56,989 nucleotides of DNA from Phenylobacterium deserti (GTDB lineage: Bacteria; Pseudomonadota; Alphaproteobacteria; Caulobacterales; Caulobacteraceae). Location of the stretch: the NCBI GenBank assembly GCA_945859865.1, contig CAMAOY010000001.1:1-56989 (forward strand), given 5' to 3'. Below, piece by piece: positions 46,509 through 52,955 of the stretch (the first letter of the stretch is position 1; each line of letters starts with the position of its first letter). A program made the translations under genes and the position numbers. Under the pieces are notes generated by a model. The model did no database searches. It had not been told where the DNA came from and saw only the letters and a list, made by a program, of their open reading frames with translations.

Positions 46509-47273
46509 TCAAGCCCCAAGCTCGGGGGAAGCGCCGCCTCGCCCCGCAGGCTGGGGTCGCGCCCCTGCGGCCACCCCCGCCCGGACCCGGCGGCGGACCT
46601 TGGACGTGACCGGCCGAGGCTGCAGGGCCAGGGTCTGCTTGACCGCCTCCATGAGGATCAGGCCCGAGGCCGGTCGCCAGAGCCGCGAGCCGACCAGCTC
46701 GAATCCCTCCGCCCACCCGGCTAGCCCGGGGATGGGGGGGACATAGAGGGCTCGGGTCCAGCCGGTGGGCGCCAGGCCCGCATCCTCGAGTCGCCGGGCC
46801 AGCTGCCGGCGGCTGTAGGGCCTGCCATGCCCAAAGGGTGTCGACTCGAACGGTGCCCAGGGCCCGTTCCGGGCGGCGGCCACGGCGATCAGGCGCCCGG
46901 CGGGGGCGAGCACCCGCACAGCCTCGCGCAGCAGGGCCTCCGGGTCAGGGCTCTCCTCCAGGGCATGCACCATAAGGATCCGGTCGAAGCGGGCGTTGGG
47001 GAAGGGCAGGGCGTCCTCCGCCGTCAGGACCGCACGGTTTCCGCGCCCGGGGGGCCAGGCGTCCACGCCCTGCCCGGAGGGCATGGCCGCCACCGCCCGG
47101 CCGGCGCCCTGGGAAAGGGCCTCAAGGTACGGAACGGCGTAGCCTGCCCCGAGCATCTCCAGGTCCCGGGTCTCGCCCCAGGTCTCACGGATCTTGCGCG
47201 TCGCCATATCCCGGGCCGCCTGGCCCAGGGGCGAGGCGTAGAAGGCCGCCAGATCAGAGATGTCTTGCCGCAT
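46509..47273 (-). CDS. Class I SAM-dependent methyltransferase (YafS-like, divergent from gloB)
   Basis: FY.SPLG, LG.GYA.PYL, LPF....FDRIL..H.LE, RVLAP.GR, PFGHGRPYS. Confidence 0.85.
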   Translation of the reverse strand: MRQDISDLAAFYASPLGQAARDMATRKIRETWGETRDLEMLGAGYAVPYLEALSQGAGRAVAAMPSGQGVDAWPPGRGNRAVLTAEDALPFPNARFDRILMVHALEESPDPEALLREAVRVLAPAGRLIAVAAARNGPWAPFESTPFGHGRPYSRRQLARRLEDAGLAPTGWTRALYVPPIPGLAGWAEGFELVGSRLWRPASGLILMEAVKQTLALQPRPVTSKVRRRVRAGVAAGARPQPAGRGGASPELGA

Positions 47274-47348
47274 GACGCGGATTTAGGCCTAGTCGCGTCC
47301 GACCGCGAGCCCCGGAAAGTCCGGAAGGCGCGGCGGAGGAAGGTCGCC

Positions 47349-48095
47349 ATGACCCTGACCGTTCATCAGTTCCCCTGCCTGTCTGACAATTACGGCTATC
47401 TGATCCGCGATGAGGCCTCGGGCCGGACCGCCTGCATCGATACGCCGGACGCTACCGCCGTCCTGGCCGAGCTGGGTCGGCTGGGCTGGAAGCTGGACCT
47501 TGTCCTGAACACCCACTGGCACGCCGACCACGCCGGCGGGAACGCCGAGGTCAAGGCCGCCACCGGCTGTGAGCTCCTGGGTCCCGCCGAGGTTTCAGGG
47601 CGGTTCCCTGTCGACCGTGTCCTGTCTCCCGGCGAGACGGTGAGCCTGGGCGGGACGGTGTTCGAGGTCCTGGAGTCTGGCGGCCATACCCTGGGCCACA
47701 TCGCCTTTCACGCACCGGAGGCGGGCGTGGCCTTCGTGGGCGACACCCTCTTCGCCCTGGGCTGCGGACGGATGTTCGAGGGCTCGCCCGCACAAATGTG
47801 GTCCAGCCTGCAGCGCCTCGCGGCCCTGCCCGACGCGACCCGCGTGTACTGCGCGCACGAGTACACGGCCTCGAACGCCCGGTTCGCCCTGTCGGTGGAT
47901 ATGGATCCGGCTGTGCGGGCCCGGGCCGACGCCGTCTTCGCCGCCCGCGAGCGGGGTGAGCCCACCGTGCCCAGCACCATAGGCGAGGAGAAGGCCACCA
48001 ATCCCTTCCTGCGCGCGCCGCACCTGCGGCCGGGGCTGCCCCCGCATGACGCCTTTGCGGCCCTGCGCGCCGAGAAGGATAGCTTCCGGGGCTAG
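47349..48095 (+). CDS. gloB: Hydroxyacylglutathione hydrolase (glyoxalase II)
   Basis: LSDNY.YL, THWHADHAGG, GHT.GH, GDTLF..GCGR.FEG, CAHEYT..N..F, TNPFLR. Confidence 0.95.
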   Translation: MTLTVHQFPCLSDNYGYLIRDEASGRTACIDTPDATAVLAELGRLGWKLDLVLNTHWHADHAGGNAEVKAATGCELLGPAEVSGRFPVDRVLSPGETVSLGGTVFEVLESGGHTLGHIAFHAPEAGVAFVGDTLFALGCGRMFEGSPAQMWSSLQRLAALPDATRVYCAHEYTASNARFALSVDMDPAVRARADAVFAARERGEPTVPSTIGEEKATNPFLRAPHLRPGLPPHDAFAALRAEKDSFRG

Positions 48096-48865
48096 CGGAT
48101 CCCCGCCGCCGCCAGGATGCGGTCGGAGGAGGGGCGGCCTGACATGCCCTGCCCGGGCGCCACGGTGATCTCGATCACGCCCCGCCGGAGCTCGGCCCGG
48201 GCCTGGCGGCCCTCGACCAGCCGCACCCGCTTCACCGTCATCAGGATTTCCCGGCCGTCCTGCAGCCGGGTCAGGCGGAGGATGGCCTCTGCGGCGACCA
48301 TGGCCGCGTCCGCTGTCAGGGCCGAGGAGGCCGGCGAGGCGTCGGCCTCGAAGGGGATAAGCCGCTGGGCGGCCCGGGTCGCCCGGGTGCTGGCCTGGGC
48401 CAGGCGCTCTAGCAGCTGCTGTGGCCCCAGGGGCGTCATGCGCAGGGTCTGGCCAGTGCCGGAAAGGGCGACCAGCAGGCCTTCGGGCCGGTCAAATGTG
48501 AAGACGGTCAACCCGCCGGTCCGGTTTGCCCTCAGGATCGGCTCGCCCAGGTCGTTCAGGTAGAGGATGTCTCCCCGCGGCGCGGGCTGGGCCCTGAGCA
48601 CCCAGACTTCGGGGCTGCGATCGAACTTCATCAGGGGTACGGGCTGGCTGCGGTCGAAGGTGAAGCGCACCCCCGTCTCGCTGATATAGCGGGCCACCAC
48701 CGGCGCACCCGGCGTTCCGGCCTGGACGCCGCCCGGGCTGAACAGGACGCCGCGCCCGACGGTCACGGACTGGGCGCTGGCCGACGCCGCGCAGGCCGCC
48801 GACAGGGCGACCAGCAACAGGAGTCTCAGCCGCGTCCGCCTGTCTGGAAATTGGGATTTGTCCAT
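48092..48865 (-). CDS. Exported protein, DUF4908-like
   Basis: Signal peptide. ARY..E.G..F..DRS...PL.KF..SPEVW.L...P.PRGD..Y.ND.G.P.LR....GG.T.F and C-terminal GRPSS, which I recall as the DUF4908 pattern. Confidence 0.7.
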   Translation of the reverse strand: MDKSQFPDRRTRLRLLLLVALSAACAASASAQSVTVGRGVLFSPGGVQAGTPGAPVVARYISETGVRFTFDRSQPVPLMKFDRSPEVWVLRAQPAPRGDILYLNDLGEPILRANRTGGLTVFTFDRPEGLLVALSGTGQTLRMTPLGPQQLLERLAQASTRATRAAQRLIPFEADASPASSALTADAAMVAAEAILRLTRLQDGREILMTVKRVRLVEGRQARAELRRGVIEITVAPGQGMSGRPSSDRILAAAGIR

Positions 48866-48955
48866 CAGCACCGGTTAGTGCACGGCGACTGGGGCGGATT
48901 TTGGACGCTGCGACGCCCCCGCCCCCTGAATACGCCACTCATACCGGTCCCGCCC

Positions 48956-49681
48956 TCAGCCGGCCATGTACTGGCCGCCGTTCAGCGACAGGGTTGAGCC
49001 GGTGACGAAGCCAGCGTGTTCCCCCGTCAGGAAGGCCACCATGTCAGCGATCTCCTCGCCCCGGCCAAGCCGTCCCACGGGGATCTGGGCGATGATCGAG
49101 GCGAGCACCGCCTCGGGCACGGCCTGCACCATCTCGGTATCGATATAGCCCGGGCAGATGCAGTTCACCGTCACGCCCTTTCGCGCATTCTCAAGCGCCA
49201 GGGCCTTGGTGAAGCCGATCATCCCGGCCTTGGCCGCGGCGTAGTTGGTCTGGCCCGCCTGGCCCTTCTGGCCATTGATCGACGAGATGTTGACGATCCG
49301 GCCCCATTCGCGTTCCCGCATCCCACCGATGACCTGGCGGGTCATGTTGAAGACCGAGTCCATGTTCACCTGGATAACGTCCGACCACTGTGTTGGCGAC
49401 ATCTTGTGGAAGGCCCCGTCGCGGGTGATGCCGGCGTTGTTCACCAGGACGTCCACCGGCCCCAGCTCGGCCTCCACCGCGCGCACCGCGCGGTCGCAGT
49501 CCTCGAAGGCGCCCACATTGCCCTTCACCACCATCACGCCCAGTTCCCGGGCGCAGGCCTGGGCGGCCTCCTCGTTACCGGAATAGCCGGCGGCGACCTT
49601 CATGCCATCGGCCGTCAACCGCTCACAGATCGCGCGGCCTATGCCCCGCGTGCCTCCCGTCACGAACGCCACCCTCGCCAT
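48956..49681 (-). CDS. phaB: Acetoacetyl-CoA reductase
   Basis: TGGTRGIG, NNAGITRD, ISSINGQKGQ.GQ.NY.AAKAG, LNGGQY. Downstream of the thiolase. Confidence 0.95.
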   Translation of the reverse strand: MARVAFVTGGTRGIGRAICERLTADGMKVAAGYSGNEEAAQACARELGVMVVKGNVGAFEDCDRAVRAVEAELGPVDVLVNNAGITRDGAFHKMSPTQWSDVIQVNMDSVFNMTRQVIGGMREREWGRIVNISSINGQKGQAGQTNYAAAKAGMIGFTKALALENARKGVTVNCICPGYIDTEMVQAVPEAVLASIIAQIPVGRLGRGEEIADMVAFLTGEHAGFVTGSTLSLNGGQYMAG

Positions 49682-49709
49682 CGCCGCCTCCTGTTACCGC
49701 CCTTAAGCC

Positions 49710-50963
<1,254 letters not shown>

Positions 50964-50968
50964 CTATA

Positions 50969-50979
50969 CTGCAATGCAA
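50969..50979. promoter_or_regulatory. Candidate PhaR box between phaA and phaR
   Basis: CTGC-AAT-GCAA matches the TGC-N3-GCA motif of alphaproteobacterial PhaR. Confidence 0.5.
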
Positions 50980-51021
50980 TAGTGGTTCCTCTGCCGCGGG
51001 TGCGCTCAGGAAGGAACCGGA

Positions 51022-51630
51022 ATGGCCAACGCGAAGGGTGCCAGGACGGGCGATGGCCCGGTCATCATCAAGAAGTATGCTAACCGCCGACTCTACAACA
51101 CGGCTTCGAGCGCCTACGTTACCCTCGAGCATCTCGCTGACATGGTGCGCAAGGGCGTCGACTTCGTCGTCTACGACGCGAAGACCAACGACGACATCAC
51201 CCGGTCCGTACTCGCCCAGATCATCTTCGACGAGGAAGGCCGGTCCGAAAGTCTCCTGCCCATCCAGTTCCTGCGCCAGCTGATCGGCTTCTACGGCAAC
51301 TCCATGCAGGCCTTCCTGCCCTCCTACCTGGAAATGTCCCTGGCCTCCTTCGCCGATCAGCAGGAGCGCCTGCGCCAGCAGATGACCGGCGCCACACCGG
51401 CGGCCGGGCTCGCCGTCTACGAGGAGCAGGTGAAGAAGAACATGGTCCTGTTCAACCAGGCCATGCAGATGTTCTCGCCCTTCGCCTACGGCAAGCCGGA
51501 GGCGCAGGCGGCGCCCGCCGCCGAGACTCCGCCCCCCGCGCCCCCCGCCTCCGAGGACGACATCGCCGACCTCAAGCGGCGGATGGAGGAGATGGCCGCT
51601 CAGATTGACAGACTTGCTTCTGGACGATGA
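51022..51630 (+). CDS. phaR: Polyhydroxyalkanoate synthesis repressor PhaR
   Basis: IIKKYANRRLYNT..S.YVTL, DAKT..DITRSVL.QII..EE, LLPI.FLRQLI.FYG. Confidence 0.96.
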   Translation: MANAKGARTGDGPVIIKKYANRRLYNTASSAYVTLEHLADMVRKGVDFVVYDAKTNDDITRSVLAQIIFDEEGRSESLLPIQFLRQLIGFYGNSMQAFLPSYLEMSLASFADQQERLRQQMTGATPAAGLAVYEEQVKKNMVLFNQAMQMFSPFAYGKPEAQAAPAAETPPPAPPASEDDIADLKRRMEEMAAQIDRLASGR

Positions 51631-51950
51631 CGGGGCCGATTGATCCCATTCGCAGGTCGCGGCGGACCCCAGGCGCCCGAAACCCGTCTGTCGAGCCTGT
51701 CCTCGCGTTACCGAATCCCAATGCCGGCGCCGGCCGGACGGATCGCGTCAAGCCGCCCCCCGAGACTCCCCTCGCTGAAGGCGCTGCGGTGCTCAGCGCC
51801 CACCTCCTCGGGCAGGAAGGCGCCCGTCGGGGCCTGCGCGGCGGCGCCCCCGTCCTGGATGAAGCCCGCTCGGCCTATGAGACCGCCGAGTGGTCCGGCG
51901 GCGCGGATCGCCGCAAGAAGAAGGGACGCAAGGCGCGCATCAAGACCTGA
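51627..51950 (+). CDS. Hypothetical protein coupled to phaR
   Basis: ATGA overlap with the phaR stop. The C-terminal half looks ordered (AHLLGQ.G.RRGLRGG.PVLD.AR.AY..AEWSG.ADRR). Confidence 0.65.
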   Translation: MTGPIDPIRRSRRTPGARNPSVEPVLALPNPNAGAGRTDRVKPPPETPLAEGAAVLSAHLLGQEGARRGLRGGAPVLDEARSAYETAEWSGGADRRKKKGRKARIKT

Positions 51951-51957
51951 TCCGCTC

Positions 51958-51989
51958 CGGCGAAATCCGCCGACCGGTCAGGATTGCCG
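51958..51989. promoter_or_regulatory. Pair of ftr-like (FlbD enhancer) sites
   Basis: CGGC-GAAATCC-GCCG (51958-51972) and CGGT-CAGGATT-GCCG (51975-51989), matching the CGGC-N7-GCCG core, about 100 bp upstream of the predicted sigma54 start site. Confidence 0.55.
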
Positions 51990-52044
51990 CTGCCAAGGCG
52001 GCCTGTGTCTGCGGAAAAGCCTTGGTTTCTGCAGGCACCCGGTT

Positions 52045-52060
52045 TGGCCCGGGCCTTGCA
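52045..52060 (+). promoter_or_regulatory. Sigma54 (RpoN) -24/-12 promoter
   Basis: TGGCCC-GGGCC-TTGCA with exact GG-N10-GC spacing. Confidence 0.7.
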
Positions 52061-52094
52061 ACAGGGTTGGCGAGATCCTCTCCGGAGCCCCGCC

Positions 52095-52163
52095 ATGCCC
52101 GCCCTCGTCGCCCGTGTCCTGGATGTCGCCCTCGTCGTGGCCATTCTGACCGCATTTACCTGA
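52095..52163 (+). CDS. 22-aa hydrophobic small protein MPALVARVLDVALVVAILTAFT
   Basis: GGAG at 52084-52087, 7 nt before the ATG. High-GC3 host-like codons, directly downstream of the sigma54 promoter, followed by GC hairpins. Confidence 0.55.
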   Translation: MPALVARVLDVALVVAILTAFT

Positions 52164-52187
52164 CGGCCCGGCCGTCCTACGGCGGCT

Positions 52188-52955
52188 TCAGAGTTCGATG
52201 ACGATGCCCGGGCGACGGGCCCGGGACTGCAGCCACATCACGCCCCAAAGATCCGAGATCGAGGCCCAGAGCCGCCCGAGGTTGGTGTACTTCGACGATC
52301 CAGTCGTGCGCGGCCGGTGCCCAACAGGCAGGAAGGCCGTGGAGTAACCCTCTCGCAGCATCAGGGCCGGCAGGTAGCGGTGGATATGGTCGAAGTAGGG
52401 AAGCCTCAGGAAGGCCTCCCGCCGGAAGGCCTTCAAGCCGCAACCCGTATCGTTGGCTATATCCCGGAGCAGGCGCTTGCGCACGCCGTTGCCAATGCGT
52501 GAGGCGACCTTCTTGGCGGCGCTGTCCTGCCGGCGCACCCGCTCGCCTCCCACCAGGGCCAGTTCCGGCGGACCCGACTTCAGGGCCTCGACCAGCCTAG
52601 GCGCGTCTGCGGGATCGTTCTGCCCGTCGCCGTCCAGGGTGACGATGATATCGCCACGGGCCGCCAGCACGCCCGTCCGGACGGCCCGGCTCTGGCCGGC
52701 GTTGGCGCCGTGGCCTAGCACCCTCAGCGCCGGGATCTCGGCCTTCAGGGCCAGCAGGCGGGCGCGGGTGTCGTCCCGGCTGCAGTCGTCAACGAACAGG
52801 ATTTCAAGGCTGTGCCCGGCGAAGGCGGCGGCGATCTCGCGGGCCAGGTCGGCGGCGGCGCCGGACTCATTGAACACCGGAACCACCACCGACACCTCGG
52901 GCCGCGTGCGCGTCTGGCGTCCTTCAGAGGCAGGCTTTGCGGGGGCCTTAGGCAT
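52188..52955 (-). CDS. Glycosyltransferase family 2 (polyprenol-phosphate glycosyltransferase, ArnC/DPM-like)
   Basis: SVVVPVFNE, FVDD.S.D, N.GQS.A, TLDGDGQNDP.D, DTGCGLK.FRR, HRYLPAL, HRPR..G.SKY. Confidence 0.92.
   Translation of the reverse strand: MPKAPAKPASEGRQTRTRPEVSVVVPVFNESGAAADLAREIAAAFAGHSLEILFVDDCSRDDTRARLLALKAEIPALRVLGHGANAGQSRAVRTGVLAARGDIIVTLDGDGQNDPADAPRLVEALKSGPPELALVGGERVRRQDSAAKKVASRIGNGVRKRLLRDIANDTGCGLKAFRREAFLRLPYFDHIHRYLPALMLREGYSTAFLPVGHRPRTTGSSKYTNLGRLWASISDLWGVMWLQSRARRPGIVIEL

Follow-up and report, generated by a model that had tools for sequence, protein, structure and literature searches.

A conserved small-protein gene downstream of phaR in Caulobacteraceae, with a sigma54 box, is likely an FlbD-activated orphan of the late flagellar programme

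The 240-bp gap between a 107-aa hypothetical gene (which overlaps the stop of phaR) and a convergent GT2 glycosyltransferase gene, in the 56,989-nucleotide stretch of Phenylobacterium deserti DNA that was analysed (the window), holds a conserved small-protein gene that is likely an FlbD-activated orphan of the late (class III/IV) flagellar programme; its product is a predicted single-helix accessory or regulator in the inner membrane. The gene has a short ORF under purifying selection and a -24/-12 box, and it is lost together with FlbD and flagella. In published tables for Caulobacter crescentus its orthologue, CCNA_03923, is translated, depends on CckA and carries a weak FlbD peak. The core of the original prediction (a sigma54 transcript that belongs to the FlbD late-flagellar regulon, lies remote from flagellar clusters and encodes a small single-helix protein) is supported by conservation, ribosome profiling, the weak ChIP peak, RNA-seq and co-loss. 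The features of the locus are as follows.

52095..52163, plus strand: 22-aa ORF, orthologue of C. crescentus CCNA_03923; predicted single membrane helix, R7-x-x-D10
52045..52060, plus strand: sigma54 -24/-12 box TGGCCC-N5-TTGCA; start site predicted near 52071
52084..52087, plus strand: Shine-Dalgarno-like GGAG, 7 nt before the ATG
51957..51973, unstranded: candidate FlbD enhancer (ftr), CGGC-N7-GCCG at 51958-51972; 10.3 bits, 88 nt before the box, lineage-specific
51974..51990, unstranded: second ftr-like site, weak, reading CGGT-N7-GCCG at 51975-51989; 3.0 bits
52015..52027, minus strand: IHF-like site AAAAGCCTTGGTT, doubtful; 2 mismatches in 9 specified bases
52171..52183, plus strand: short GC hairpin past the ORF stop, without a U-run, against the convergent GT2 stop
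51627..51950, plus strand: 107-aa hypothetical protein, orthologue of CCNA_00542; lost together with the peptide
51022..51630, plus strand: phaR, context; retained where the peptide is lost
52188..52955, minus strand: GT2 glycosyltransferase, convergent context; retained where the peptide is lost

The motif letters all stand where the original prediction had placed them; the second ftr-like site begins with CGGT. The GC hairpin behind the ORF is possibly a terminator common to the peptide gene and the convergent GT2 gene; the first ftr-like site could alternatively be a hairpin behind the upstream stop codon. Further upstream (46509-51630) phaB, phaA and phaR adjoin DUF4908, glyoxalase II-like and methyltransferase-like genes, an ordinary context. 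Within the window, the -24/-12 box and the ORF are the parts that exceed chance. Taken by itself, the window's genome gives modest statistics (it contains 1190 strand-matches to the bare CGGC-N7-GCCG pattern, and the IHF-like site has its two mismatches); the 16-mer of the box recurs once in the genome, inside an open frame on contig C57, so that the box alone proves little, and the case rests on comparison.

We compared the locus across the genus, using the 107-aa neighbour as anchor. Box and peptide were present in 28 of 30 loci (one of the remaining two is ended by a contig edge, and the other has different genes inserted), with the box followed, usually after 34-43 nt, by an ORF of 21-23 aa and the consensus M-x5-R-x-F-D-x-A-V-V-(T/A)-L-I-F-T-A-L-T. 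A first peptide profile found matches in 156 of 301 Caulobacteraceae genomes and a wider one in 236 of the 301 at E<=0.3 (two of five weak matches that were checked proved false); the same short ORF was seen in all 40 of the more distant matches inspected. In these distant loci the usual order is phaR, the 107-aa gene, an optional divergent HTH gene, the box, the peptide, an optional 142-aa membrane gene, GT2 and an ArnT-like gene. The overall pattern of the peptide is 21-22 aa with R-x-x-D, 12 mostly hydrophobic residues and a stop. The Asp is invariant, Arg or Lys stands three positions before it in 97 of 99 loci, and the stop codon lies 13 codons from it in 96 of the 99 (six of which are repeat fetches), with TGA, TAG and TAA all in use. 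No in-frame stop occurs in 90 distinct sequences, and close pairs give pN/pS values of 0.27-0.46, the bias toward synonymous substitutions that had been proposed as a check on the ORF (over all pairs, with synonymous sites apparently saturated, the value is 0.61). Shine-Dalgarno-like words precede the peptide in 57 of the 99 loci, and the best 19-residue Kyte-Doolittle window of the window's own peptide reaches 2.3. The family is under purifying selection, and ribosome profiling of the C. crescentus orthologue indicates that it is translated; given this evidence and its conservation across Caulobacteraceae, the ORF at 52095-52163 almost certainly encodes a real protein, as originally claimed. 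The claim that it is unannotated holds for most genomes (exact look-ups of eight peptides gave no database entry for seven, the exception being a Caulobacter vibrioides hypothetical protein in NCBI and UniProt) and fails for C. crescentus, in which the orthologue is annotated. Searches against Pfam and NCBIfam gave no family matching more than one of 22 members, and a search of PDB gave no match.

Several other readings of the ORF were rejected. It had been conceded that the ORF might be the stub of a longer deleted gene; the fixed position of the stop and the use of all three stop codons speak against this. A 59-aa frame that opens at an upstream TTG is not conserved; in relatives a stop often precedes the peptide closely, and many of the open frames span 24-33 aa. 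The suggested structured or dual-function RNA found no Rfam match at the gathering score (best E 0.54), and the 5' leader varies freely. An attenuator leader peptide of the ilv type does not fit a next gene that is convergent here and in most annotated loci (IlvGEDA_leader matched one of 22 members, at E 0.19), nor, in C. crescentus, does a leader peptide for the same-strand hemF, which in published tables has its own start site and does not move with CCNA_03923.

The -24/-12 box, GGC-N7-TTGC, stands upstream of the peptide in 93 of 93 distinct loci, about 35 nt before it, so that the predicted sigma54 box at 52045-52060 can be accepted as real. A scan of GTDB asked for the -12 element and the peptide codons, with the -24 element left free, and the -24 GGC appeared at the right spacing in all 80 listed loci (from more than 120 records with the pattern; those listed are mostly Phenylobacterium, Caulobacter, Brevundimonas and Caulobacterales, and a few carry generic or other labels). 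The columns of the box that were free of selection agree with the RpoN motif GGCNC-N4-CTTGC as given in the accessible part of PMC4287350. We conclude with high confidence that the peptide gene has a sigma54 promoter. A further sigma54-like box separates phaR from the 107-aa gene in 8 of 83 family loci, counting one repeat fetch (L018, L019, L023, L024, L050, L051 and L054).

Outside the family the profile searches gave only false matches. A class-wide search (about 298 genomes) gave two weak matches outside the family, both false on reading, and an order-wide search gave one in 160, located inside a 556-aa frame. Such misses do not show absence, because true diverged members (G071, G077, G133, G040 and G711) escaped the profile. 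In G040 and G711, from a sister family, the box is followed by a diverged 107-aa gene and then by a peptide that ends 13 codons from its Asp, and in G040 the stop of the diverged 107-aa gene overlaps the peptide start; only the Asp and the length are retained in these two peptides. The layout of G077 is the same; in G071 each of the two genes has a box of its own in front. The arrangement in G040, G711 and G077 suggests that both genes may once have formed one sigma54 unit. Among 22 genomes from four other families, taken without regard to flagellar status, none had box and peptide behind phaR.

The 107-aa neighbour, under one sigma54 box with the peptide in those three genomes, was not found behind phaR in the three non-flagellated genomes that were read. 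Its family (241 representatives) has a conserved block at the C-terminus; the 150 of them listed are without exception small proteins, with no named family or structure, and the ESM Atlas yielded only unnamed clusters. According to the part of the published record available, its orthologue CCNA_00542 is CtrA-bound and cell-cycle regulated in C. crescentus. The 107-aa gene is likely a second gene of the swarmer programme, and its product is possibly a functional partner of the peptide. On the other side, the divergent HTH gene (CCNA_00541 in C. crescentus) has its start 3-30 nt away from the box (46 loci, among them L045:1110-1421). In many loci this gene follows the GT2 and 142-aa genes on the minus strand, which places the peptide gene antisense within a possible operon.

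We evaluated the enhancer with an ftr matrix of our own, built from 19 sites in flagellin and fliX/flgI promoters. The first site in the window reaches 10.3 bits (in the whole genome, 59 of about 2.38 million positions score 10 or more), and its position at -88 matches the proximal of the two ftr sites (-89 and -110) in the genome's own flagellin promoter; the second falls below 2 bits in the closest relative. That flagellin promoter (G000:C100:3623-3748) has a textbook layout, with two ftr sites 21 nt apart, an A+T-rich stretch and the box. Across the family, only 4 of 102 loci have a site of at least 10 bits at -130 to -60, and in 46 of the 102 the region around -100 is coding sequence of the divergent HTH gene. 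Within -260 to +330, 7 of 88 loci outside genus g16 reach 10 bits, and most Caulobacter and Phenylobacterium loci are without a strong ftr; in C. crescentus-like loci the best nearby site has 4.9 bits, at +142. In genus g16 a site of at least 10 bits (12-16) is present in 12 of 14 loci, at -212 to -226, inside a variable part of the 107-aa gene, and all 12 records named Brevundimonas have one at -212 to -232. The g16 sites persist while the amino acids change, and they beat synonymous recodings (0.001 or less in ten tested, for sites chosen after the fact). In L062-L075, about 220 nt before the box, the ftr-like site in coding sequence is spelled with codons that are rare in these GC-rich genomes. 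The enhancer thus appears to shift by lineage, from -88 here to -212 to -232 in Brevundimonas.

The IHF-like site at 52015-52027 has the letters described, with two mismatches and no conservation: a site with at most one mismatch between enhancer and box occurs in 2 of 102 loci. The IHF site of the genome's own flagellin promoter also has two mismatches, but is far more A+T rich (0.55, against 0.38 here). Describing the promoter as a complete set of ftr, IHF and -24/-12 elements was therefore an overstatement, given the four of 102 loci with a strong ftr near -100 and the unconserved IHF site; of the two ftr sites claimed, the first scores well and stands at a flagellin-like distance, as a lineage-specific candidate, and the second is weak.

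Loss of the peptide follows loss of FlbD. The window's genome, by names assigned from sequence, encodes RpoN, FliX, flagellin, FlbD, TacA and an NtrC. Flagellar genes are without match in two Caulobacteraceae lineages, and sigma54 is likewise without match in 27 of 45 genomes of genus g37 and in G244. The latter (100% complete) has no match for FliX, FlgI, flagellin, RpoN, FlbD, TacA or Flp pilin, is the only one without FliX among 45 same-genus genomes, and has phaR abutting GT2 with the peptide gone; the loss of pili, TacA and RpoN in the same genome qualifies this case. In g37, FlbD orthologues (77-82% identity) are found in 14 of 45 genomes. Thirteen of these 14 have box and peptide beside GT2/ArnT; the other, G165 (an assembly of 380 contigs), lacks an ArnT match, and neither profile nor pattern gave a peptide there. 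Among the FlbD-less g37 genomes, box and peptide are present in 0 of 30 loci (25 with ample flank; one genome gave no locus). In a tree of ArnT and GT2 rooted on the window's genome these 30 genomes form one group (support 0.48), and the co-loss therefore counts as two events, not 31. The peptide is not retained wherever TacA and RpoN are: G083, G156 and G341, from one clade, keep both and lack FlbD and the peptide, which favours FlbD over TacA. Two FliX-positive genomes, G078 and G084, have no peptide at the locus, which speaks against necessity. GT2, ArnT and the 142-aa gene remain after the peptide is lost, indicating that their synteny with it is not functional. Both lineages, G244 and g37, are candidates for loss of the dimorphic swarmer programme.

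Published data on the C. crescentus orthologue, matched by position and length (CCNA_03923; AHI88526.1, UniProt A0A0H3IXM1; hypothetical protein), bear on translation and regulation. In the available tables of PMC4117421 it is a new ORF mapped by ribosome profiling (560907-560972; 31 and 87 RPKM), which answers the question of translation at the syntenic locus, and its RNA-seq value in the same 2014 data is 0. The FlbD ChIP-seq table of PMC4083442, as far as accessible, lists 21 probes genome-wide, among them 560951-561000; this probe, credited there to CCNA_00541, spans the predicted start of CCNA_03923 together with its first codons. A peak thus lies on the orthologue's promoter, as the original prediction would have it, but it is weak: it ranks 16th of 18 gene-linked probes, near the cut-off, the same probe is also SciP-listed, and three of five other low-tier probes checked recur in other ChIP lists, for which reasons it may be background. 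The predicted start site has no counterpart in the global start-site table of PMC4287350 (the table proper), which has no entry between 560776 and 561664; loss of an RNA of about 120 nt from those libraries is a plausible cause. In the hit lists of a transposon screen for adhesion, where flgF and motA do appear, CCNA_03923 is absent (at 66 bp it may have received no insertions), and public RNA runs, sampled in small shares, gave no contig across the peptide ORF. A search of main texts outside subscription journals, figure labels apart, found no paper that names CCNA_03923; it may be among the labels of Fig. 7D in PMC12421884.

Expression data are more informative on control. Table S3 of PMC12421884, the part of that source used here, gives log2 values against wild type for cckA(ts) and for cckA(ts) with ntrC deletion, with L424P and with A446P. 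CCNA_03923 has -4.03, -1.60, +1.38 and +1.31 across this series, the class III gene CCNA_00944 has -6.63, -3.17, -0.42 and -1.06, the upstream CCNA_00542 has -2.61, -3.79, -3.27 and -3.63, and CCNA_00540 and CCNA_00541 are flat. The orthologue thus drops 16-fold in cckA(ts) and, like CCNA_00944, is higher with the ntrC DNA-binding mutants than with the ntrC deletion (about 8-fold; the gain of 2.9-3.0 log2 exceeds the fourfold cut-off of a 24-gene, mostly sigma54-flagellar set in the same source). Its expression follows class III/IV genes in a comparison with one class III gene and three neighbours. Because CCNA_03923 tracks CCNA_00944 while CCNA_00542 is not rescued and the other neighbours are flat, we argue that it has its own promoter under flagellar-type control; this argument is limited by the CtrA targets ccrM and sciP, which belong to the 24-gene set and show the same pattern.

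These data must be weighed against two other accounts of how the box is fired. The gene could be sigma54-dependent with TacA or an enhancer-independent activator in place of FlbD, the peptide then belonging to general polar or swarmer development. The absence of a fixed ftr in most lineages, the weakness of the FlbD ChIP peak and the loss of TacA in G244 fit such an account, but the three genomes that keep RpoN and TacA without FlbD have no peptide, strong ftr-like sites occur in Brevundimonas and in the window, and CCNA_03923 tracks a class III gene, which makes it very unlikely. Alternatively, CtrA and SciP could control the gene directly through TTAA-N7-TGAA (which we take to be the CtrA consensus) lying over the -12 element, the flagellar-like profile being that of CtrA targets such as ccrM and sciP. 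TTAA does follow the box in 57 of 102 loci (in 21 of them TGAA comes seven bases later), a SciP probe sits at the same place and the drop in cckA(ts) is strong. However, TTAA goes with the HTH gene, which it may serve (41 of 46 loci, against 16 of 56 without that gene), and is absent from the window's own locus and from 40 of those 56; the element always retained is the -24/-12 box, and the CtrA-bound upstream gene is not rescued. We consider direct CtrA/SciP control highly improbable, and FlbD likely to be the activator of the peptide gene.

What the peptide does is less constrained, and there is about an even chance that it is an accessory of a flagellar or polar membrane complex. An FlbD-controlled peptide might instead act on the division or cell-separation machinery and link flagellar assembly to cytokinesis; the regulatory evidence is the same for both, and a review, in its available part, connects FlbD with cytokinesis, but no division gene adjoins the peptide in annotated loci and lineages without it still divide, so that we regard this as quite unlikely. 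It is barely credible that the peptide mimics the Asp-bearing helix of MotB, ExbD or TolR to plug or tune an ion-driven motor: behind the invariant Asp comes a hydrophobic helix whose Phe stands eight residues further, as it does in MotB (compared by eye in two relatives, MotB being absent from the window's assembly), but under the peptide profile the genome's three ExbD/TolR helices score -8 to -13 bits, against 31 for the peptide itself, and sister-family peptides keep only the Asp and the length.

In the mechanism that we propose, FlbD, once freed by FliX, would act from an enhancer of lineage-dependent position to activate sigma54 polymerase seated at 52045-52060, and a transcript of about 120 nt would start near 52071 in the late predivisional cell. 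Release of FlbD by FliX once early flagellar structures are built is described in the accessible portions of PMC3930126 and PMC3096577. The peptide would insert N-terminus-in and uncleaved, as a single helix in the inner membrane; it carries a single Arg-Asp pair, and the sequence flanking the helix is too short for a domain at either end. Peptides of this kind generally work by docking onto a larger membrane protein. The fixed length after the Asp and the conserved small residues suggest a helix-packing surface, and the conserved R-x-x-D pair with its helix of fixed length would dock on a partner; the peptide would serve a membrane complex at the new, flagellated pole.

A bolder version, which we hold to be unlikely, is that the peptide is the missing FlbD-controlled effector, made after the basal body, whose R-x-x-D helix docks on the division or cell-separation apparatus (or feeds back on FliX/FlbD), with the 107-aa neighbour as ancestral partner; if true, this would explain why division stays incomplete in Caulobacter strains mutated in early flagellar genes. 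After more than 30 years of study, the FlbD regulon of C. crescentus is taken to hold flagellar structural genes, and to it we would add an undescribed small-protein family. Databases already list the ORF as a hypothetical protein; in the texts searched we found no published account of its conservation, of the sigma54 box before it, of its likely membership of the FlbD regulon or of its loss along with flagella. A family-wide 21-aa membrane peptide apparently went unremarked because the ChIP peak was credited to a neighbour and the ORF was annotated only in 2014. CCNA_03923 is now a named, deletable candidate for a part in late flagellar assembly or motor control, and also for the way in which FlbD couples flagellar assembly to cell division. 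The gene also offers a clean case of a sigma54 promoter with a fixed core and a moving enhancer, which in Brevundimonas would lie in the upstream coding sequence.

Among known systems, the helix of MotB, ExbD and TolR likewise begins at one invariant Asp, but the peptide has no periplasmic domain, carries Arg three residues before the Asp, and its profile does not match the ExbD and TolR helices. Small single-helix membrane regulators are known from Caulobacter (SidA) and from enterobacteria (MgrB, AcrZ, KdpF and CydX); the peptide shares with them its size, one hydrophobic helix, a regulated promoter of its own and a record of being missed by gene callers, although not their sequence. With the FlbD/sigma54 class III/IV promoters (flbG, flaN, flgF, flgI, fljK and fljL) the window gene has in common the type of -24/-12 box and an ftr-like site at -88, as in its own flagellin promoter, and CCNA_03923 has in common with them the RNA-seq profile and, weakly, a ChIP peak; unlike those genes, the peptide gene has a single weak, lineage-variable enhancer, lies away from flagellar genes, shows no conservation of an IHF site and encodes 22 aa that belong to no family. 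CCNA_03923 itself, whose record in the available table of PMC4117421 has ribosome profiling as its only annotation and an empty conservation cell, differs from the window gene in that a divergent HTH gene occupies the upstream region that here carries the ftr-like site, and agrees with it in locus order, box and peptide family.
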